Source: Phoronis australis (taxonomy: Eukaryota; Animalia; Phoronida). From it: 64,000 nucleotides of DNA. The position numbers were made by a program, and so were the translations under genes. The first letter of the stretch is position 1. Every line of letters begins with the position of its first letter. The notes below the pieces were generated by a model that was not told the origin of the DNA, searched no databases, and saw only the letters and a program-made list of their open reading frames with translations. The stretch is from contig NMRA01000388.1 in NCBI GenBank assembly GCA_002633005.1, positions 284,616-348,615 on the forward strand. The letters run 5' to 3'. This document shows, piece after piece, positions 3,601 through 61,000 of the stretch.

Positions 3601-6600
3601 GGAAGGAATACATCCCGTTCTTTGGGGTTGAGATGTCATGAATGATTAATTTGGTGATGGAAACCAGCAACAAATAAAAGTTGTTTGATAAACATTAGTG
3701 TGGTAAGTAATGATGGTGATAATTTGTGCTTTACACGGTGGACAAGGAAGAAATGTATCTTAATAGGCTGGGGTGTGTTTTATCACACGACACTGCACTT
3801 TATGATCAACATAATTGTCCTGAATAATATATAAATGACATGAGCGTCGCAAGCTCTTTACCAGAGATGAAAAGGAGATCAATGGAGGCTATATAAGGTC
3901 ATTCATAACTGATGTAAAGTTGATAGAAAGCGTTTTCATAGTCTCTGATACAGATGGGGTAAAGTAACTCACTTACCCAAAGACTGTGTGCTTGCTGCCT
4001 CTGAGTAAGCGACTTACTATACCTTGATGTAAAATGAATGAAATTCATCAGGGGCCACGTTAATAATAGACAAATTACAGAAAGAAACGACAGTCATAGA
4101 AAGGACCAGGCTTTCGTAAAACGGGTCTCTGAGGTATAGACACATGCAACGCTGACGGCTTTACTGCAATTACTGCTACCACCTTACCTCTTGTTCTTCA
4201 CCAGTTGAAATACTTCAGACTTTTGCGACTCTTGAATATCGAAGTTCTTACAGTACCTTGTGGTATATGCAATCATTTTCTGAAATTACGAACAGCTCAC
4301 ACTTCAAGACTTATCTACACAGCTAGGGCACTCCTCGTCAAAAAATGAAAAAATTCTATCTTGTATTTTTGCTACAAATTGGCAGCAAGATTATTACAAG
4401 GAACGCAACCAAACTCGCTAGAGGACAATGCTTTCAGCATCAAAAAAGATAACTAAAACTAAATCTTGTCTTGAACATTCACCTGAAACTGGTTAATCCA
4501 TCTACTACAGCACACGGAGCATTCTTCAACGCAGCGCATCCAGTTTATGCGAATCTGGTGGGTTTCACGCGAGCAGTTTGGCCCCTACAGCTCAAACCAT
4601 TTTGCCCACTGAGCTTTAAAGCAGAGTCTAAACTTTCGATGGTTAACAGCGGCGAAAGAGCATCTTCTACCAGACCTCATGGTACTAAGACACAATATAA
4701 ACCTCGCTTGCAAATTCTGAGCAAGTCCAGCCAACACTTTCACCGCAATGCAAGATCATGAACACAGTTTAATTTATTCACAGAAGTATAACCAGTTTTG
4801 GAAATCGAATTTGAATATTTGCCTTGACAACAGAGATAGGTGCAATGAATCAAATGGACTTTGCACGTTAATGCATTCACCATTGAGAATTAAATTTATT
4901 TAATTGAATCTTTAACTCAAGCATGGACACTGTACCTCGTTACAAAATACTATAAACTGACGAAAGGACACCTGTCAGCAGGAAAACCAGGCTAAACTAT
5001 CACTGACAGCACTAGGCAATTGTGTGTGTGAACTCTCCAGTTCAAGCGAATAAGAAACTCTTGCAACACATTGTGTTCTACACCTGGATATAACTTTGAA
5101 AATGTGTTAGGCAGTACAGCTCGGCACGCCACATTAGATTCCTGAACTCTCAACATTTCCACTCACCTTGTGTTTCTCCGCTCCTTCCTTGCTGAAATAC
5201 AGCTGGACAATGTCATCACCTTTAATGTAGAATTTGTAACGCCCGGTGAAAGGTGCAACAAAGTAGGACTCTGTCAGCGTGCCGTAGTAATCACCATAGT
5301 TGAAGGGGCAAGCAAAGTCATCGGCCGTCGTCTCACACCAGTCCATCCCATCTGTCCAATTACTGAAGACGGCCGACGCAATTGGATAGAACGTGGTGTT
5401 GGCAAGTTTCTCAACACCAGTCCAACCCATAGACTGCTGCATCATGTAGATGGTGCTGCCACGGTTTCCTGAAAGAGATTGATAGAAAGTAATAATAAAA
5501 GTAAAGCTTGTATGAGTTGGACAAGCACACGTTGGATTTTCGCTTTGCTCCAGCAAACTTCAGTAGTTTTTCCACTTCGTGCATGCACTCGGCCTTTCAA
5601 AGAGTCTCATCGTGTAATACTCTGATGAAACTTACGATGTCTGTTGAATCTGACTGGTGCAAGCTTCACTGTAACATCCACATTCTTCTGTCTTGTATAC
5701 ATATAATAGTTATATTGACACATGTTCCATTGTCCATTTCTCACATAATAGGATGGTTACCACGAGATGACAGATATTGTGTCACATTAAAAATCCCACC
5801 ACCCGTGTGCATGGTGCTGTTTTGGTTACCAGCGCGCTCCACACAAATTTCTGAATATTTTTTTCACTTGTGCAAAATTACTAGGTCTCTTACAATATAC
5901 CCACAGTTGCTTGTAGCTCAGATATACCATGAATCATGAATTATTTCTTAACTGCCCTCATTCGTACTGGTTAAATTTTTTATTCAGTGATTGCCGATTT
6001 CAGTCTCTAATCACTATTCATAAACCAGACACCTGGACCATTCTGAATCTGTTGGCACTTTTGGTAAGGGACATTTTTAGAGAATTTAATTAGCAGTATC
6101 ACAGATTCGAACCCACAAACTCTTCAGAAGCAGCCAAACACTCTGTCATTGAGCCACATCCCACGTGTTAAGTAGCAGAGTATAATGTTGAAGCGTACTT
6201 CAATGTTACAGACATCGGCCTCGATTCCAGGGTATGTGTGGCAAACAACGTCGAGAACTGCCAGGTGACAATAAAATCACAAAAAACACCGGCCAAAGGT
6301 AAAAACTTCAGAAAGTTTACTCCACCAACGATGAAATAGGAATGCATTTTTCAGCAATGAAACTGATTATTTCCTTTCAAATGATGTCATTTGTTCAGCA
6401 ACTTATTGCCTGCCGATCTGTGATCCCTAAACAGATCACGTAACCAGCCTTACCTTGGTAAAATCCATCATAGTCACTGGCTGCAGGCTTTGGTCCCGTG
6501 ATACATTCCACTTTGGAAATATCGAATGACGTCACCTTACACGGCACGCCTAAAATGAAGCGTAGATCATGGATGTACAATGCAGTAACTATAAATAATT

Positions 6601-35458: not shown

Positions 35459-37599
35459 TTAAGCGTTTCCGATGGCGAGGCCCAGTGGAATTTCAACTCC
35501 AGCACGTGACCTATTTATTCTATTGTTAGAGTTTGTGACTCCGATGTTTCACGCGGTAGTCTGATCTCTGGATTTCCGGTTGTCTGTTGGATTGAGTTTT
35601 GATCGAGTGTTGTAGGTATCAAATCGAGCCTAACTTCATTGTTTCGTTTCCATTTTGTAGTTTTTGCTCATCACACGAGACTCTTGGAGTAATTTGTCCG
35701 CAAAATTAGCCAACAAACCCGACAATTACTTTGGTCATTCTTCATACGCACTCATTTGACCTGTTGCCTTGACTGGATACCGGGAACAGTTTGNCCCCCC
35801 CCTAAATCCGCCTATGCTCTGTATTCCACAACTCGAAACAACACGGGGACAAGCGAGTGCAAAAAATCCCATCCATGCGCGATAGTGAAGTTGGCATTCC
35901 AGGTCTACAGTTGTATGATCCAACCAATTCGAATGTCCGAATGTTTCTTCGTTCGGAGAAGTCAGGCTGAGTGAAGTTCTACATTTTTTAAGTAAGTGAA
36001 CTCATTAAGTCGTAAAAACACTGAATAGATGTCAATGTTTTTAAAGCAATTCCCAAATTAACGACGTCTAAGGTTCGACGTTGCGTAACACCGATTGTAA
36101 TTTACGAGATGAGCTATTTGTTTCTGCTTTTTGTCGACTGGTAGCAGTTTCGTTGTGTATTGCGACTGTTTTCATGTTGTTAATTCAAGATGCGTATTGC
36201 CTTTAGCATGCCATTGCTTTGTACGTCCTGTACAGTGCTAATTTGACTAGGAAATCGTTTTTACTACATTAACGAAGAGGGTTTATTTAAGTTAGTCACT
36301 CCGGGTTTTGGCAAGACAACAGTGACAGTTTAACGTTAACGGCAATTGCAAGCGTTTGTCATTTGACCCCTCGCGTTAGTGGCAAAAAACGTGTTTCTCA
36401 CAGAGATTCTTCATTTTCTTTATTTACCCTCCTGGAACCCCCGCTTAGATCCGGCACTGTAGTGTTTTACCCTCACACAGTTACAGTCAGGGAGAACGAA
36501 CCTTATCTATACCAAATAAGGAAGTTGAAGGTTGGCTAGACCTCGTTCGAGTAACTGTAGGTAGACAGATTAGCCAATGGTTTGGTGCAGCAGTGAACCG
36601 CAGACGACGGTGCGCACGTATGTCATCGTTATCAGAGTTAATGGCATTCAATTGTTTTGTTATCTTTGTCGCAGGGGTATTGCGAATGCTTGTTGCTAGC
36701 CACAAGAAATGAGGTCATTCGCTCTTAATGTGCCTACAGAGAATTCCTTCCGAGGTCTGCCTACCCAATGCCACATATTTATAGAAACGCTTCTTGATCC
36801 TCTTCTTGGCAGCACATTTTATCTAATATCATGTAACGACGGTCTTCTCTCTAAAAGCTCTTACACCTAAACAATTTCACCCGATGGAAAGTGTTTGGAT
36901 CAACTGCTGGTGCCGACATTTACTGTCCGCTGCAGTTAACCTTTCCTGTGGATTCCACTTGCTTTTAACGAAAACATCATTATTCAAAACCACTGACGTC
37001 TTCATATTTCGAGTTCTGCAGAGTGAAATTTGAACTTCTGCACCTTAAAATATCTCATGAACGCTTACAGGTCCAACCTGGTGAAACATGGAGGCATGCC
37101 AAGCCGTTTCCCAACGAGCGGCTGACCACATATACATCCCATTCTCTCTGTTGTTGTAACAATTAGAACATACGTATATAGTACAAGACGGCTCATTTTG
37201 TTAACAGCAAAAATGACTGGTAGTAACTTTTATGGCGGTGAAGTACTAGTGACATGGTTTTGCCACCTTACTAATCTTTCTGTTTAGTAGGTTCATTTCG
37301 TTGTTGCATTAGTAACCGAAATTTGTTATGCATGAGACGAACACATGAAACACGTTTCGCAATTCATGCAGCAATTTATTGTCGTGGCTGCTGTAGCCTG
37401 TACACCATTGGCACGACATATTTCCTTATCGCAGCTCGTTTGAGGTCAATTATATTCGTGAACCAAACACGTGCCAAATCCCACGGCACACTTGTGTGAA
37501 TCAAAATAGTAGTTGTCAAAATCCCGTCTCGGGGAACACACGTCCTTTAAAGCGTGAAATTCGTTTTTCAGGCAGACGCATACAACTATATTATCTAAG

Positions 37600-39604
37600 A
37601 TGGCGCAGACGACTTTGGATAAAATAGACGGCATTTGTAGTGCCTGGTTTAGGTTGAATTGTGACAAAAGAATCCTACAAAATATCATGTTTCGTTTCGA
37701 ATCAGAACACCAACACGAGCCAGATAGTCGGCGACTCGCGGTTATGAACATAGTTGGCTACATTTATCACGAACTCAACGTGAAGGGAATTCTGGGCTCC
37801 GCGTCACAGTGCTTCGAGCGAGTATTAAGTGAAGACCCAGACAACCTCAACGCTCTTAAGAGTCTCGTTCACATTCACCGCACGACGTCACCTGAAAAGG
37901 AGTTCAAGTATCAGAGGCATTTGGACCGCTTATGGCAGTGCGATCGGGTTTTGCAAGAGCAACTCATTGCCAGATGCATGTTCGAGCATGCAGTGTATAT
38001 GAGTGTGCGTGAGGAGTCATTTCTACGCGACAATCATCAGCAGATTATCAAAACCTTCGAGAAATGCATCAGGATTGGGAAAGAAAGTAAAGTTACGAAA
38101 TGCGAATTAGAGTTATGGATGTATGAGTTGGGAATTCTTTACGTTCGTTTAGATTCTCTTTCAACTAAAGAACCAAAACTGACACAAGTTACCGAGAGAC
38201 AATGGCTGGTAAAAAGCTTGGAGACGCTTTATGAAGTAGCAACAAGTGGTTCTTGCGAAAGACGAAGAGCTGACTGTAGCCTTCACAATGCATTTTTGGA
38301 TTGTAAAGGCAAGTCATGGAGCTATTTGGGTGTTGCACTAATGCGTCGACTCGAGACCCAAGGTTTTGCTATCAAAGACGTAGCTCAAAGCATTGGAGGC
38401 GAATTCTGCACACTCAATGGAATGCAATGTTTTGAGAAAGCTTTAAGTATTTCGCCAAACCAACCCTCTGTTCTGAGACGGGTTGGACAGGCTTATATGC
38501 GAACAGGTGAGATGGATAAAGCAAAAGAATATCTTTGGAAGTCCGTTAAAATTCAGCCCACTGGTTACGCCTACAGTCTTCTTGGACAATGGTACTTTAA
38601 AAATTACCAAAATGAAAGAAAGTAAAGATGATCTGGATTCGTCGATCAAGTATCTTAATCTTGCAAGAAAGGGCTCCTGTGACATGTATACAATGTTTAA
38701 ATGTCTCATAGAAGCATACAAGGTCAGTGGTAACTTGAAGAAGGCCAAAAAGTATTGCGAAACGTGCGCAGGAACATTCGAAGGATCCCGAGAAGCTGAT
38801 CTCTACAGGTTATGGGCTAAGCTACTTCGTGAAACTAAAAACATAGCGATTGCTGAGCAAAAAGAGCAACGGGCTAAGAAGATAAGTGATGGACAGAATC
38901 CGGAAGAAGTCAAAGATTTTGGAGTTCACTACGCCAAGAGTGATGAGGAACGTGTAGAGAGATTTGTTAAACAAGTAGAAGGAACCATGGAGGTGTCGGG
39001 CTACTTTTTAGGTAGAGATCTTACACCTGGTAATTACTTTCTTGATGGTCTGATAGGGTTAGAGAAAAAATGCAAGTACGTGTTCGTATTTTGCACAGAA
39101 AATTACAATTCGCGTTTTGAAAACGAATTGAATAAAATAATGCATCGGAGATTGGAAAGAGAGCATAGGTCTGTAATACCGCTGGTTTTTGGCAATGCCA
39201 TAGTACCGGAGTGTATAGCGGATGTTAAAAGAATTAATTACGATGAAAGTCAGCAGTGTTTTGATGAACTGGAAGAGGTGTTTCACGGGAAGAAGAGCCT
39301 AAGGAGGCGAATTGTACATATTATGAGGGGCACGAATCAACCCATGACATTTGTCCGTTATGTGACTCTCGCAATGGCCTTTCTTGTTGGTCGCGTAACA
39401 ACTTGGATATCGGAATACGTTACCAGCGGAAAGAAATGGTCAAGACATGTTTTGTTTGGACTAATATCAGTCACTTTTCTGACAGGAATGTTGATTATGG
39501 GGCTGGTGGACAAATTCAGACCTTATGGCATGCGCAGAACTGTCGTACAGTACGTCATACTTGTAATAATTGCCTATTTCGCCGGACTAAATGGACATTA
39601 CTAG
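37600..39604 (+). CDS. TTC22/IFIT-like TPR + TIR + C-terminal transmembrane protein, interrupted by one +1 frameshift near 38610-38625 (~667 aa if joined)
   Basis: ORF 37600-38625: AVMNIVGY..CFERVLSEDPDNLNAL, ARCMFEHA, WMYELGILYVRLD, SWSYLG, CFEKALSISPNQPSVLRRVG, colinear with recalled TTC22 motifs. ORF to 39604: further TPR helices, a TIR (DFGVHY..D...GRDLTPG...VFVFCTENY..FENEL...VIPLVF...VPECI, ~38912-39285), then 2-3 hydrophobic helices. Good start context aagATGG; no introns required. Confidence 0.8.
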
Positions 39605-40032
39605 AATAGTTGTGACTCGTCCAGTTACATTTTGATCGCGAACCGTGAAATGGAGAGAGATTTCATTCTTCAACCTTCTGGAGCTGTGAAAAACATGGCG
39701 GAAAGATAGCAATCGTCAAAGGAAAGTTAAAACATCTCGACCGTGAGAAATCCTATAGACATTGAGCCCGTTCAATGTCTTACAGGCACTCACTGACTTG
39801 TCTTCTGCATGAAAAAATGAAAAGTGATATGATTCTTTTGCTCCAAACCAATTATTTATTATTCTGGTTTGACACTAAGCTGAAGTAAAATCTTGACAAA
39901 AACAATTACGCCGCTATTGTTAATGTTTTTTAATATATATATTGATTGTCCAGACAATAATACAAAGCCAGTCTGAGGTTTGGCCCCTCAGATCTGGCTT
40001 TAACAACAGTGTATAATATTATAATATTGACC

Positions 40033-40058
40033 AATAAATTTACGTATACGGTAATAAA
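40033..40058 (+). terminator. Candidate polyadenylation signals (AATAAA x2) for the TPR-TIR gene
   Basis: AATAAA at ~40033 and ~40053, 430-450 nt after the stop; AT-rich context weakens specificity. Confidence 0.3.
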
Positions 40059-41984
40059 ATGCAATGGAAACGGGGAATGGGGGCCGGGGGAAGGACTTTA
40101 ACGCGCCATTAATACATTCAAGCTGTGCTGATATGATGTCTGATGAAATTATGTGTTATATAAATACATAGGCTTACATATGAAATAAATAATAACAGTA
40201 GAACTTCATTCATTTCTAGAATAATAATTAAAAGAATGCGTGCAGATCTCTCCATTTATCCACATTTGTGTCCGAGGTATCTATTAAAATTGTGTTTATA
40301 AAGGTTTGTAACTTCAACTTCTTTTAATTTCTGAATTTTATTACCATAATTAAGCTGTTAAACTTCTTTGTCATTTTGACCAAAATATATTCCTAGACTT
40401 TTTATAGGTTTCCGTGGCCAAGAGATCTTGTACATTTTCTGAAGACAATGGGCCCCACCTATTGTTAATGTTGATTGCGGCATTGTTTCGTCATTCACCG
40501 TTTACTCAAAAAGGTATTTCAGTTGCATTGTCGTTGTTGCCCATTTTGTCTACTTCAGAAAAGAGAAAACAGGTCCGACCTCGCTAAACTCGGATCTAGG
40601 ATGTCTTAAGGGTGTACTCGGCCTCAATTTTTAAAAGACGAAATCTCGAGATGGCTCCTAAACGACATTGCGGAGCATATTTTTGTTGAGCTCAGAGTGC
40701 TGGGCCTGGGCACCTGAAACCATCCCATATTCTCCTGTAGTCCCAGGGCTTGTCCCATAGGAATAAATTCTTGACAAATCAAGTGGAATTGTCTTCTCAT
40801 GTAGCCACTGCGGTGGGTATTTCATTTCGGCCACGTACTTTAATCTTGGATATGTATTCAGATACGTTCATTGATCGTCATGCTCAATTGGGTGTTACGA
40901 AAATAGTTGTAACCCGTAAGGCTACTAGGCAGGGGCAATTCTTTCCGTTGTATAGACCCTATGTATGAAAATGAACCCTGGCGACAAGTGAACGAGTTTG
41001 TCTTATCACTACATTTATTTTATCACCTCTGTGCGGGGTTCTTTCCTCCTGAACTGCTGCGAACAAGTGTGAATTATAAATGGTTATTCAAAAAAAGTTA
41101 TCTGTTCTTCGGACGGTTTTTTGTATGAGACACACACGTAATAAATTTTCTTAAGGAATGATTATAAGGATCTGTTTTATGAGTAAGCTGTGTGTTCAAT
41201 AATAATAAAGGCTTAGCTTTTCTTTAAAACTATGAATAACATGTGCATTTTGTAATATTCATAAACGCTGTCAGCTATGCGTTTAGTACAATATTTCTTT
41301 TGATATGACTTAGTAACATTTCCGTAGAACCCGATCATGTTCCAAATTATTTCTTTTCTTCCCTTCCTCAGACGTGTAAGGACTATTATTAGGGAATATT
41401 TCGACCAGCAGAAAAATATTATGATAACGCGTCTTCTTTCAAAGTCAGTAGCGAAGATCAAATGTTGGTGTAGAGACGTGAAATTTTAGAGGCACCTGTA
41501 TTAATTCAACATTAGCTAAACAACCACAAAGAAATCTGTAACTTACTTTCGTCGGGATCACTTTTTGATGGTGGTGTACCACCAGAGAATAAACACATAG
41601 CGTCTACACCCCTAAGATTAGAACGGTACCATTTGCAGATGGCTTAATGAAAAGGTCACTTTTCGAAGAGGTTTGTTCTCATAAAATACCCGCTTCCGTT
41701 GCATTTTTAACGCAGTGACACTGTCGAATGTGTTTCATTGAGGATGGCGTTGTTTTCCAGTTTGATGAGACCATGGCGCTGGCTTGTCGGTAAACAATTT
41801 CAAAATGAAAGTTTTATATATTTGGTTGACTTACGCCAGTGAGTCCGCAAGAAGATGTTATACATTTGAACGTTTATGCTATACATTTTATGGAGGCCTA
41901 GACTGCCGTTATTTAAACTCAAATTCTGAATGACTGACTGAAAGGAAAAAAGAACTCACCCGCATTAATTTCAGCCAAGGCCTC

Positions 41985-55154: not shown

Positions 55155-58084
55155 AATTCCTCAAATGACGATCGGGAATCGGTAGTCGACCAAATCGTTA
55201 TCTTTGCAATACGGCCAGCGCAGGATTCTATTGCGGAAGCTTCTGTTTATAAAGGGTTTTCATAATACATGTATTTAGTGCAATAACTTGTTTTCACAGA
55301 CAGACTGCCCCTTAATGAAGAGTCTGTCCTTGAAACAGTGTTTACAGTGGACAGATGTATATTTGTCCTCTGCTATCAGGATAAATGGTCCCCGAACTGA
55401 AGACAAAATCTTAACTACATGATGCCTGCGGTAAGCTAACGAAGATATGCCGCGGAGTAATAGCATATGTTTTATTTTGGTCGATATCTTTAATAAGAAC
55501 TGGGTAGGCTACTGCTGTTCATATCAAACGAACATTTTAGTCCAGATTCAGAGTTTTAGATTGTGCCCAGCCTACCACATTGTGCCCGACCCTGTATTCC
55601 TATAAGGTCAATGTTATGCAAATGTCACACATCCCGTAATCTGCTCGTAAACACATAACTGGCAAAATCAGGCTTACTGCCCAAGCCGATATGAAAAATG
55701 AATTTTAAGTTCATGTTGGTAAAGAAATAATGAGCCCCGCTTAATTTTGTGTGAGGCTACCCAACATGAGAGATTCAATTTAATTTCAGTTATATTCCAA
55801 TGGCAAAATCATACTTACAATCAAAACAATGTAACGTTCCACGAGTCGACACTAATACGAAAATCGCCAGATCGCATATGCTACCTAGACAAAATCCCAG
55901 GTCACACTATCCCGGTCGCATTCATAAATTTCAATTTGCAAAATTTTCCCGCCAGTTTTACGCCCAAGAATTCCTTTCTGACGGCCATACCACCATGGGA
56001 TGTGAGACTAACCCGACGTGACAAGCATCTATATGGGCGTGGTCAGAAGCAAGAACGACCTGTCAGTTTTTCTCAAGTTTAGAAATCATTTCTCTTCTGA
56101 GTAAGGAACAAGATGGTAACTTACTTAATAGCAGAAAGCGACCTATTTCAAAAGGTATTTTTGACTGGTGAATTAACCGTGTGAGTGGTGAAATCCTTGT
56201 ATAGCTTCTTTATATTTGGGAGTGGTCAGTTTCAGTTTCAAAATGACAGCCGAACCATGGAACTCGAAAACTTTAACAAGGTAATGATTTTATAGCCTGT
56301 GTCCAAAGAATTTTGCTCCTCTTATGCATTCTGGACTGTTGGGTCTGTTTAGAGCTTTAATGGTGAAGTATTGGCTGTGGGTGTATTTTGGGCTCTCTGT
56401 CTCAAGTCTGAACTGTTCTCTTGAGGCAGTACTTATGCATCTCTGTTTGCCCTAAAGTTAAGATTCGTTTTTATTTAGTCTAGTTTGGGGAAAATTCAGT
56501 TTATCAGGATCGGGTGCGCTGTATATTTTGAGGAGTGAGGTTCGGGGGTGCCAGGTACACTGTGTGTGGATTTTTCAAAATCTCTTGTTAAAACATAGGC
56601 ACTGTACCAGTTTTTGGCTACTGCGGATACATGATTCACAACGTGTGCGAAAAATGTACCCGCACTTCACTACAACACCGGGAATTCACATTCAATTCAG
56701 ATTCTGCTCCCGTGTACACCTTTGTGTTGAAAGTGGGTGCGTGAGTCATCAGGCATAGCGTGCTCTGTGTACACGGGAATCTATGATGGCAAACAAACGT
56801 CTCGGAAGTGCAAATACATTTAAGTATATGAGCAATGCGTTTAATTTGTTTTATAAAAAAATAACTTTTTGGTCATCTGTTTCTGAATTTAAACCACTAA
56901 TCTTAGTGTCAGTAAACAATGCATTTATTGTTATTTGAATTGTGAGTACGTTTTTAGGACACCCTTAGAACTCTCCCTTATCACTGAGAGTTATTTCAGA
57001 TTGGCAAAAATTGTCTAGCGTACGATTTAGGGATCGGTTGATGGACATTTTTCCATCTTCAGCCTGCAACTAAGTTTACTAAGTGTGGTTTCAACAACTT
57101 TTCCAAGAGTAGCTTCCACGAAGTAGTCGATTTTCGCATAGCTACAACAAAACATGTATCAGAAGCCAACAAATTCATTTGTTATCTAAGCAGAATTTTA
57201 TGAGCTGCGATTCCCGAAGGCACGCTCGCAGGTTGTTAACCGTACATCAGGGAGACGGCCCCATAGTGTTTGATGGTTCCCCAAAGAAATTTTCTGAATT
57301 TTTTCATGTGAACTTGTATCTTAGTTCATTCCAGATTAGCTGTTACGGTTTATAAGTTAAACTTAAAATACAAAAAAATCGCTGAAACATTTGTTTACGA
57401 TTGCCAGTACATGTACCTTGAGTACGATTGGTCATCAAAAATCGTACCCACGATGGTCTGTTCGACAACTGCTAGTTACTTACTGAAAATAATTCGTGGT
57501 GACCATCTTCGAAAGAAATATCATTCTTATGATACTATGGAAAAAGTATAGATAATTAATCGTTACAATTTTAACCAACATTTTCAACTACGGGCGATCA
57601 GTTTCAACAAACAATAATCGATTTAGCCATTTACATATTCCTCCGGTTCAGCGACACAAGTTACGGTAAAGGAGAAAATGGTTGATCGCGAGGCCAATAA
57701 TTACAAACAAATTTTTCATCGAACAAAAGTTCACCTTTTTGCCTTAAAAAAATATTCAATTCCATGTTCACGCATACACGATCTTGAGATGAAGCGGTAT
57801 TCCAAGTTCACACCCAGCATGTCACACGACCCGGCCGGGCCTCACCCTTCCTAAAAGCTCGTGACTGTTGTTCGACTCGTCCAATAGGTGCCGCAAAACC
57901 AAAACCCCTTGCGAGTCGATGTTGGAATACATCTCGAGCTTTTTAGCTTTGGTGGCCGTGTTATTTGGTGTCCTGGTCTATTTCGATAGCCAACCATCAA
58001 TTAATTATTCTAGGAACATAAAGTAAGTATTTTTTATAAATCAGGCGCGAAATTTAGGTGCATTTGTTGCATTAATCTCGCTCT

Positions 58085-61000
58085 TCCGTCGTCCTCCCCA
58101 TTGTCGTCCTTTCGATTAATTCCGCCAAGTGTCGCTTCTCCGAGCGCTCTCGTTACTTGGCGGAATTCTTCCGCCAAGTATGTTGGTCTGACAGCAAGTT
58201 TTTACTTGGCGGAATTCTTCCGCCAAGTATGTTGGTCTGACAGCAAGTTTTTTTTTGTTTGTTCGCTCTCTACAGGTCGCAATTTTCGTTCGATTTTCAC
58301 GAAATTTGCACACAACGTGTAGATCGTGAACTGCTAGAAAGCTATTGTTTTTGGTCATGATCGAATACAAAATGGCGGACGTGGCGGCCATTTTGTATCC
58401 GATTTCACAGTCAAATACTCGTAGAGGCCGCATTTTTCGACCTACATGACTGAAAAGCGGAACGAATATAATAGATCGCATATGCTACAATTGTGCAGAA
58501 AATCATTGACTTCCAGTTAAAGATAGCGGAAATATTGGACGTGGCGCATGCGCACCCCGAAATATGGTCAAAAACGTTTTCTCCTGTAGAGGGCGTAATT
58601 GCAAACCAATTACTTTCAAACTGGTCACGTGTTTGTTGAGTTTAATAAGCTTTTAAAAAAAATATTGAACCGGAAGTCACTTTCCAGATGGCGACTGTGG
58701 CGCATGTTGACACGGTTTCAATCGCTCTGGTGTCGCATTTTTCACGGGAAGAGTAAATGACGTGAATTTTTGCATGTGGATTCCTTGAAGTATGGCCTTT
58801 CAAAAAATCTGCGACAGCATATTTCTCAGACTTACCGTTTTCGAGTTACTTGACTTTGAATTTCAAAAAAAACGGCAAATTTTCAATTTTCTCGAAAAAT
58901 TTTTGGATTTTTGCCAAACTACCACTTTAGATAGAGATTTGAACGGGCTTTCAGAAGATATTTTCCATTTTGCCCTACGCCGTCTACTTTTTGAATTATT
59001 CGAGATTTTCGGATACCAGTGTTCCTATGAGAGCGCGCCGGTGGCTGACTTTCAGTTCACTTTGTTTTGGTTATGCCTAGTTGACCCAGACTGACCCAGC
59101 CAGCACTGTCGTACTGTAAAGCATGGCTCGTCCGTCATGTTGCGCCATCTATTGTTCTTTATTGTAGTTGATTGTATGCTCTCTATTTGATTTTTTGCTA
59201 GTCACATGAATGTTATCGTGTTTGACAAACTACCACTTTAGATAGAGTTTTGAACGGGCTTTCAGATAATAATTTTCATTTTGCGCTACGACGTCTACTT
59301 TTTGAATTATTCGAGATTTTCGAATACCGTTGTTCCTTCGGTCACACGCAGCTGGCTGGCTTTCAGTTCACTTTGTTTTGATTATGCCTGGTTGACCCAG
59401 ACTGACCCAGCCAGCACTGTTCTACTGTAGACTGGACAGTCATGTGGCGCCATCTATTGTTCTTTATTGTAGTTCATTGTATGCTCTCTATTTGATTTCG
59501 TCGCTAGTCACATGAATGTTATCGTGTTTGCCAAACTATCAGTTTAGATAGAGTTTTGAACGGGCTTTCAGAAGATTTTTTCCATTTTGCGCTACGACGT
59601 CTACTTTTTGAATTATTTGAGATTTTCGGATACCGTTGTTCCTTCGGTCACGTATGCACGCAGCTGGCTGGCTTTCAGTTAGTTCACTTCGTTTTGGTTA
59701 TGCCTAGTTGACCCAGACAGACCCAGCCAGCACTGTTCTACTGTAGACTAGACCGTCATATAGCGCCATCTATTGTTCTTTATTGTAGTTCATTACATGC
59801 TGTCTATTTGATTTCTTCGCTAGTCACATGAATGTTACCGTGTTATCCATTTTTGCCGCCTTGATCATCATGATTGTCGTCGTCGCTCTCATTGTCGTCT
59901 TTTCGATTAATTCCGCCAAGTGCCGCTCTTCCGAGAGCTCTCGTTACTTGGCGAAATAAATTTCGCCAAGTATGTTGCTCTGACAGCAAGTTTTTACTTG
60001 TCAGAATTCTTCCGCCAAGTATGTTGCTCTGACAGCAAGTTTTTTTTTTTTTTTTTTTTTTTGTTCGCTCTCTACAGGTCGCAATTCTGGTCCGATTTTC
60101 ACGAAATTTGCACACAACATGTAGATCGGGAATCACTAGAACGCTATTGTTTTTTGGTCATGATCAGATACAAAATGGCGGACGTGGCGGCCATTTTGTA
60201 TCCGATTTCACAGTCAAATACTCGTAGAGGCCGCATTTTTCGACCTACATGGCTGAAAATCGATACGAATATACTACAACGCATGTGCTACAATTGTGCA
60301 GAAAATCGTTGACTTNNNNNNNNNNNNNNNNNNNNNNNNNNNNNNNNNNNNNNNNNNNNNNNNNNNNNNNNNNNNNNNNNNNNNNNNNNNNNNNNNNNNN
60401 NNNNNNNNNNNNNNNNNNNNNNNNNNNNNNNNNNNNNNNNNNNNNNNNNNNNNNNNNNNNNNNNNNNNNNNNNNNNNNNNNNNNNNNNNNNNNNNNNNNN
60501 NNNNNNNNNNNNNNNNNNNNNNNNNNNNNNNNNNNNNNNNNNNNNNNNNNNNNNNNNNNNNNNNNNNNNNNNNNNNNNNNNNNNNNNNNNNNNNNNNNNN
60601 NNNNNNNNNNNNNNNNNNNNNNNNNNNNNNNNNNNNNNNNNNNNNNNNNNNNNNNNNNNNNNNNNNNNNNNACCGTTGTTCCGTCGGTCACACGCAGCTG
60701 GCTGGCTTTCAGTTCACTTTGTTTTGATTATGCCTAGTTGACCCAGACTGACCCAGCCAGCAGTGTCCTACTGTGGCATAGCTCGTACAGTTCCAGGGCA
60801 AATACTTATTGTAAACATAACTTTGCTTTGCAGACTGTCACATAGCGCCACCTATTTTAGAATGTGGGAACAGACATGACTCGTCCGTCATGCTGGGCCA
60901 TCTATTGTTCTTTATTGTAGTTGATTGTCTGCTCCCTATTTGATTTCTTCGCTAGTCACATGAGTGTTATCGTGTTATTCATAATTAACGCCGTGATCGT

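Follow-up and report, generated by a model that had tools for sequence, protein, structure and literature searches.

A TPR-TIR gene with a hydrophobic C-terminal tail, present as an open and a truncating allele in Phoronis australis

The genome of the phoronid Phoronis australis contains, on the forward strand of contig NMRA01000388.1, a gene that encodes a TPR array, a TIR domain with the Box 2 loop and a hydrophobic C-terminal tail, in this order. The gene comes in two alleles, an open one, in which all these parts belong to a single reading frame, and a truncating one, which is the copy found in the window (the whole stretch of DNA that was analysed, 64,000 nucleotides, positions 284,616 to 348,615 of the contig), and trace transcription is detectable.

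The window has a G+C content of about 39% and consists of intron-style DNA with sparse coding content and assembly gaps. Two long ORFs in neighbouring frames (+1 shift), 37600-38625 and 38477-39604, both on the plus strand, are by far its longest frames, those spanning gaps aside, and overlap as the initial annotation described. In base shuffles of the 32.1-60.3 kb segment, the longest ORF has a mean length of 133 codons and a maximum of 216 (200 trials), so that both ORFs lie far beyond chance expectation. The parts of the gene are the following:

37600..38625, plus strand: ORF1, from the ATG to a TAA that is premature in the window allele (341 aa, comprising just the TPR array, for which Pfam TPR families exceed their cut-offs)
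37798..37911, plus strand: N-terminal TPR-like unit, residues 67-104 (ARM_TT21_5th, E 2e-4; match to the consensus TPR)
38422..38604, plus strand: best-conserved TPR pair, residues 275-335 (Pfam and PDB matches; the sole model region with pLDDT 70-90)
38477..39604, plus strand: ORF2, 375 codons from stop to stop in frame +1; the coding part proper starts at the frameshift and ends with the TAG at 39602-39604
38609..38612, plus strand: A-run that is one base longer in the window allele, a polymorphic frameshift (base missing in the contigs of runs X3 and X4, present in X1 and X2)
38624..38896, plus strand: continuation of the helical/TPR array past the break, and linker (weak TPR matches, E 0.06-0.7; IFIT3 and TT21 matches cross the break when it is read through with X)
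38927..39250, plus strand: TIR domain, Pfam TIR_2 span, residues 443-550 (Pfam; ESM Atlas TIR_2 clusters at 0.90-0.91; weak alignment with the TLR2 TIR)
38978..38980, plus strand: Glu460, the acidic partner 12 residues before the Box 2 Arg
39014..39031, plus strand: BB-loop Box 2 motif RDxxPG, residues 472-477 (motif as defined in passages of PMC7075850)
39125..39127, plus strand: Glu509, aligned to the conserved alpha-C glutamate (alignment with the TLR2 TIR, 1fyw)
39350..39412, plus strand: weakly hydrophobic, partly amphipathic helix, residues 584-604, a possible first membrane or surface helix (Kyte-Doolittle below 1.3; mean Eisenberg 0.35-0.47; helix in the model)
39449..39508, plus strand: predicted membrane helix with basic flanks, residues 617-636 (Kyte-Doolittle 2.23)
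39539..39595, plus strand: predicted terminal membrane helix, residues 647-665 (Kyte-Doolittle 1.75)

The two alleles are distinguished by a comparison, over 37000-40200, with DNA contigs from four runs (X1-X4) of one study with at most two samples, from which the assembly may also derive. A 1344-base contig found in X3 and X4 is one base short at 38609, inside a run of four A (depth 74 in X3 and 12 in X4), whereas the contigs of X1 and X2 cross this position without a gap and carry the extra base; X2, X3 and X4 come from one sample, in which both forms are thus found. Removal of the base at 38609 yields 668 codons from ATG to stop, that is, a single frame of 667 amino acids, so the joined length given by the initial annotation is correct where the extra base is missing. 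The contigs without the base indicate that the gene exists intact and that the window holds a truncating allele, a broken state which that annotation had overlooked: the window copy stops before the TIR domain. Accordingly, TPR and TIR are not part of one polypeptide in the window allele but are joined in the open allele. The predicted product of the window allele, a 341-aa TPR-only protein devoid of the TIR and the anchor, is most likely null. The gene itself is real and probably functional but dispensable.

An error of sequencing or consensus at the break is rejected because gap-free contigs carry the base in X1 and X2, and lack it in X3 and X4. An intron or a programmed frameshift is not needed as an explanation, and the RNA shows no joints here, at a coverage too low to exclude them. 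Two paralogues in place of two alleles are less likely given the contig depths: in X3, the depth is 60-74 over the gene, compared with 23-38 for several short flank contigs, and a single heterozygous diploid locus fits these values better. The match to IFIT3, which spans residues 274-368, improves from E 8.1e-4 for ORF1 alone to E 7.8e-6 when the break is read through with X; its extension past the break is consistent with one original frame.

The description of the gene as intronless is borne out for the coding stretch alone. By a crude splice score, the AG at 37570-37571 ranks among the best 10% of plus-strand AGs, which makes an upstream 5' exon possible. The putative weak splice acceptor (37570-37572) lies 28 bases 5' of the ATG and is in phase 2 relative to the open frame. 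According to passages of PMC3688568, IFIT genes have a phase-2 intron directly behind the start.

Within the gene, the allelic difference is about 1.3%. The variants counted include 25 coding ones among 40 of the 80 listed and one more from the RNA comparison; 15 of these 26 are non-synonymous and 11 synonymous, with no stops, and none of them falls in Box 2, Glu460 or Glu509. The resulting pN/pS is about 0.36 (binomial p 0.011; simple site counts), an optimistic value given that transition bias is ignored and 40 of the 80 listed variants are used, and indicates modest purifying selection on the coding region. Among the listed variants in the TIR domain, 6 of 9 are non-synonymous, some of them radical.

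Transcripts, on which the initial annotation made its proposal depend, are present in trace amounts: three raw RNA runs of one study, of which 18-19% each was read (35.1 million records), yield about 14 reads over the coding region, or about 0.2 FPKM, near noise. No joints over the gene are seen among these reads, and run X8 gives no coverage of the gene. All of the approximately 14 reads have one orientation, their first mates mapping to the minus strand, which is the sense direction in the usual stranded libraries; with the strandedness of the library not on record and six reads starting at about two places, sense transcription is indicated only weakly. No ISRE-like or kB-like sites are detected by plus-strand patterns in the 1.2 kb upstream.

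The TIR domain that the initial annotation placed at 38912-39285 is recovered by the TIR_2 profile, at 29.9 bits in ORF2 and 31.1 bits for the isolated domain (cut-off 28); the match to PF01582 (TIR) is just under its cut-off, so that TIR_2 outscores TIR. Together with the TPR families and the tail, these matches above the curated Pfam cut-offs support the order of TPR array, TIR and C-terminal hydrophobic helices within one gene that had been proposed. The domain combines RDxxPG with an acidic residue in the range of 12-14 positions before the Arg, as do the TIR domains of the TLR/IL-1R/MyD88 type; in passages of Toshchakov and Neuwald (PMC7075850), Box 2 with its acidic partner marks the TIRs of TLR, IL-1R, TIRAP and MyD88 and is usually lacking from TIRs of prokaryotes. 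The best structural match of the TIR is TLR2, a weak one (E 0.085). The Box 3 Trp is seemingly missing, with Phe554 followed by Asp in its place (placed by eye, the TLR2 alignment stopping short); the glutamate motif is preceded by Phe, and the spacing is one shorter than in TLR2. As to catalysis, the same passages note that the conserved glutamate occurs in >70% of TIRs, including the non-enzymatic TLR1/2/6/10, and is not predictive of activity, and that SARM1 was the sole metazoan TIR with known NADase activity in the 2020 survey (PMC7075850); the TIRs of TLR4 and MyD88 are described as lacking such activity in a passage on a family that has not been exhaustively assayed (PMC7282519). In the ESM Atlas, which provides leads only, ORF1 lies near TPR clusters and ORF2 is nearest to bacterial TIR_2 and TIR-TPR clusters (0.90-0.91). 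The PADLOC models gave nothing above cut-off, with no TIR model matched and bSEFIR matched weakly, and NCBIfam likewise gave nothing above cut-off. Judged by its motifs, the TIR domain would likelier act as a scaffold than cleave NAD, given that the TLR/MyD88-type Box 2 is retained and that Glu509 is not predictive of activity.

With a segment scored as hydrophobic when a 19-residue window exceeds 1.3 on the Kyte-Doolittle scale, ORF1 has no such window and hence neither a signal peptide nor a membrane helix, and none precedes the TIR. The signal peptide is therefore absent, as stated by the initial annotation, and of the two to three hydrophobic helices it saw after the TIR, two are clear and one is weak, below the threshold. 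The missing signal peptide supports the cytosolic placement that had been suggested for TPR and TIR. Every helix of the tail is flanked by basic residues, which makes its topology ambiguous. Both fold models derive from single sequences and have low confidence, with a mean pLDDT of 45 and 49.

The relationships of the TPR array are less specific than the label 'TTC22/IFIT-like' of the initial annotation implies: a TPR array is indeed present but a specific kinship with TTC22 or IFITs is not established, the IFIT matches being level with those to other TPR proteins. In ORF1, TPR_8, TPR_1, TPR_2 and TPR_19 pass the Pfam cut-offs. The PDB matches to IFIT1, 2, 3 and 5 share one register, around residues 261-368. 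With the read-through query, CDC27 (E 1.2e-6) and TOM71 (E 4.3e-6) compare with IFIT3 at E 7.8e-6, and the best natural TPR matches, CDC27, TOM71 and SPINDLY, are scaffolds or co-chaperones. Neither residues 1-268 nor residues 320-431, searched alone, produce an IFIT match at E up to 10. Fold searches with the low-confidence models give generic TPR or three-helix matches; for the TPR model (mean pLDDT 49), these are generic TPR folds with IFIT5 at rank 21, and the IFITs are not among the 50 VIA rows listed, which excludes nothing. The TPR region is mildly basic (47 K+R, 41 D+E). Several motifs, at residues about 68-92, 124-133, 173-187, 238-250 and 277-296, may resemble TTC22, in the same order, and we regard this putative resemblance as credible.

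The IFITs, interferon-induced vertebrate proteins that bind the 5' ends of RNA, have a TPR array comparable in length to this one (about 430 aa) and, according to passages of PMC3688568, a coding region nearly in one exon, as it is here in a single one, but differ in having no TIR and no membrane helices, whereas here a TIR and a hydrophobic tail follow the TPRs. The same passages report IFITs only from jawed vertebrates and place the nearest lancelet and acorn-worm TPR proteins outside the IFIT group (PMC3688568). In passages of PMC13693868, TTC22 is a seven-TPR protein-interaction protein, with no phenotype in knockout mice and no known sensor role, so that kinship with TTC22 alone would not imply sensing. 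Unlike the gene analysed here, TTC22 is multi-exon. It also presumably has neither TIR nor tail.

The pairing of TIR and TPR is not new to animals, although the initial annotation did not recognise the design as characterised there: a 'TIR-TPR' class is named in passages of an oyster immune survey (PMC4346834), in which invertebrate genomes are said to encode many TIR proteins with added domains, TIR-TPR included, and TIR-TPR also appears among the abbreviations of an Aplysia survey (PMC9334734). Evolutionarily conserved invertebrate TIR proteins, ecTIR-DC, cited in a passage of PMC6321704, may include TPR-bearing families. The order TPR-TIR-tail anchor is not found in the literature searched, which leaves most subscription journals outside, and the passages of PMC8195603, PMC2858798, PMC5787515 and PMC11797021 contain nothing on this architecture. 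The open allele shares with the invertebrate TIR-TPR proteins the defining combination of TIR and TPR in one polypeptide chain; it has the TPRs first and a hydrophobic tail after the TIR. The protein is best placed with these loosely known invertebrate TIR-TPR proteins, not among the IFITs and not yet among the relatives of TTC22.

No relative with the same domain architecture turns up in the collections searched. Word searches, which need close identity and cover mostly microbial collections poor in animal genes, give no relative among 2025 and 715 candidates, and one of 7995 is a generic bacterial-type TPR protein. A search of representative proteins yields 3720 matches at E<=0.001, mostly generic multi-TPR proteins, and none of the best 150 has a TIR or a full-length alignment at E < ~1e-8. 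Scans for the locus in metagenome, genome and viral contigs find none among 44, 33 and 3 candidates; in a further scan of this kind, 9 of 45 candidates match, in each case over no more than two TPRs. Animal genes are scarce in these databases, and missing relatives therefore show neither novelty nor lost conservation. No paralogue of the TPR-TIR gene is found within the window.

Several better characterized systems resemble the protein in part. The TLR and MyD88-type proteins have a TIR with Box 2 RDxxPG and the acidic partner but, in contrast to them, there is no signal peptide, LRR (no LRR family in Pfam) or Death domain here, and the hydrophobic helices follow the TIR, whereas in Toll-like receptors they precede it. 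MAVS likewise carries a cytosolic signalling domain on a C-terminal membrane anchor with basic flanks, but this domain is a CARD, the tail has one helix and there is no sensor of its own. SARM1 and the bacterial TIR/TPR systems couple a helical-repeat regulatory part to a TIR with the conserved glutamate; SARM1 differs in its ARM-SAM-SAM-TIR order (no SAM family is found here in Pfam), the TIR here being of the Box 2 scaffold type. BcTir/Tpr is a bacterial two-gene operon according to a passage of bioRxiv 10.1101/2023.05.26.542521.

Every step of the mechanism beyond the anatomy of the TPR-TIR-tail protein we infer. The open allele may well encode a signalling protein that is tail-anchored and faces the cytosol, with its TPRs binding a ligand and thereby clustering the TIR domains on a membrane and recruiting TIR adaptors; this is the leading reading, which we hold tentatively. 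The tail would insert, without the aid of a signal peptide, into an organelle membrane, leaving TPR and TIR to face the cytosol; the TPR array would serve as the part for recognition and self-inhibition, with a protein or a nucleic acid as the ligand, whose binding would bring the TIRs together on the membrane, and a non-enzymatic TIR-TIR assembly with a MyD88-like adaptor might then lead to an NF-kB-type output. The more elaborate version would place the array in the TTC22/IFIT lineage, with foreign RNA or a viral protein as its ligand, and unite a clamp like that of the IFITs, a Toll-type TIR and a MAVS-like anchor in a one-chain cytosolic receptor; it appears distinctly unlikely.

The same anatomy would suit a membrane-tethered regulator or decoy, whose TIR binds the TIRs of TLR/MyD88 and dampens signalling and whose TPRs are a protein scaffold for chaperone or E3 docking. 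One-chain receptors such as NLRs and SARM1 usually have an N-terminal repeat array fused to an effector domain, which speaks against a decoy. Conversely, the top TPR matches are the scaffolds and co-chaperones CDC27, TOM71 and SPINDLY, TTC22 is a TPR protein of protein interaction (in passages of PMC13693868), and amphioxus TIRA, TIRC and SARM inhibit MyD88/TICAM signalling (in a passage of PMC6043800); overall, such a role is rather unlikely. Cleavage of NAD+, whereby a TPR ligand would induce TIR oligomers at the membrane and, as in SARM1 or bacterial TIR/TPR defence, NAD+ depletion or an ADP-ribose messenger, draws on the alignment of Glu509 with the alpha-C glutamate, the lead of TIR_2 over TIR in Pfam and the proximity to bacterial Atlas clusters (0.90-0.91, a lead only). 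On the other side are the presence of this glutamate in >70% of TIRs including non-enzymatic ones, the Box 2 of the scaffold groups and the position of SARM1 as the sole metazoan TIR with known NADase activity in 2020 (all in passages of PMC7075850), as well as the Phe before the glutamate motif, the spacing one shorter than in TLR2 and the PADLOC result with no TIR model and a weak bSEFIR; to judge from these motifs, an enzymatic TIR would be quite improbable.

The gene might instead be a dispensable duplicate in decay, a fusion or paralogue specific to its lineage that is turning into a pseudogene and has no current function, a possibility to which we give about the same low credence as to the decoy. 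The frameshift allele in two of the four DNA runs and in the assembly, the expression of about 0.2 FPKM, the 6 of 9 listed TIR variants that are non-synonymous and the lack of a paralogue in the window and of relatives in the databases searched all accord with decay. However, there is a single disruption in 2 kb, none of the 26 listed variants is a stop and pN/pS is 0.36, Box 2, Glu460 and Glu509 are intact, and the databases are so poor in animal genes that missing relatives say little. Immune genes, moreover, commonly show almost no expression before induction.

To our knowledge, invertebrates without interferon possess many TIR proteins with unusual partners, almost none of which has been assayed. 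If the reading as a tail-tethered signalling protein is true, the open allele encodes a membrane-bound, wholly cytosolic TIR receptor, the reverse of the Toll-like topology. The open and truncated natural alleles permit a genotype comparison without gene editing. The TTC22 resemblance, if true, would give a first functional clue to a vertebrate gene without a knockout phenotype. If the array is of the IFIT/TTC22 lineage, such arrays would have been invertebrate signalling receptors before becoming stand-alone vertebrate effectors, and alleles with and without function would segregate, as they do in plant resistance genes.

The flanks of the gene yielded no informative repeats. About 370 bases upstream of the ATG, 37187-37236 is a short piece of an abundant interspersed repeat, which hundreds of DNA contigs and RNA reads fit partly, in both directions. 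Allelic insertions in the upstream region at 37253 (3 bases) and 37365 (12 bases) are a further sign of a highly heterozygous diploid, and the repeat-rich 3' flank has allelic indels at 39610-39658 and 39936-40114, with AATAAA at about 40033 and 40053 as candidate poly(A) signals. Elsewhere in the window, an exon-like ORF on the minus strand, 5137-5559, has a weak GLEYA/PA14-type match (E 5.5e-4); we take it to be fibrocystin-L-like and hence part of a large spliced gene. Among the 146 of 247 listed ORFs that were scanned, 55723-56079 on the plus strand has a weak, below cut-off match to Pfam DUF1015 (E 3.6e-4), probably by chance. The segment 59900-64000 contains a repeat family in several copies, whose low-complexity frames are alike, has a strong AT skew and adjoins the assembly gap at 60316-60671.
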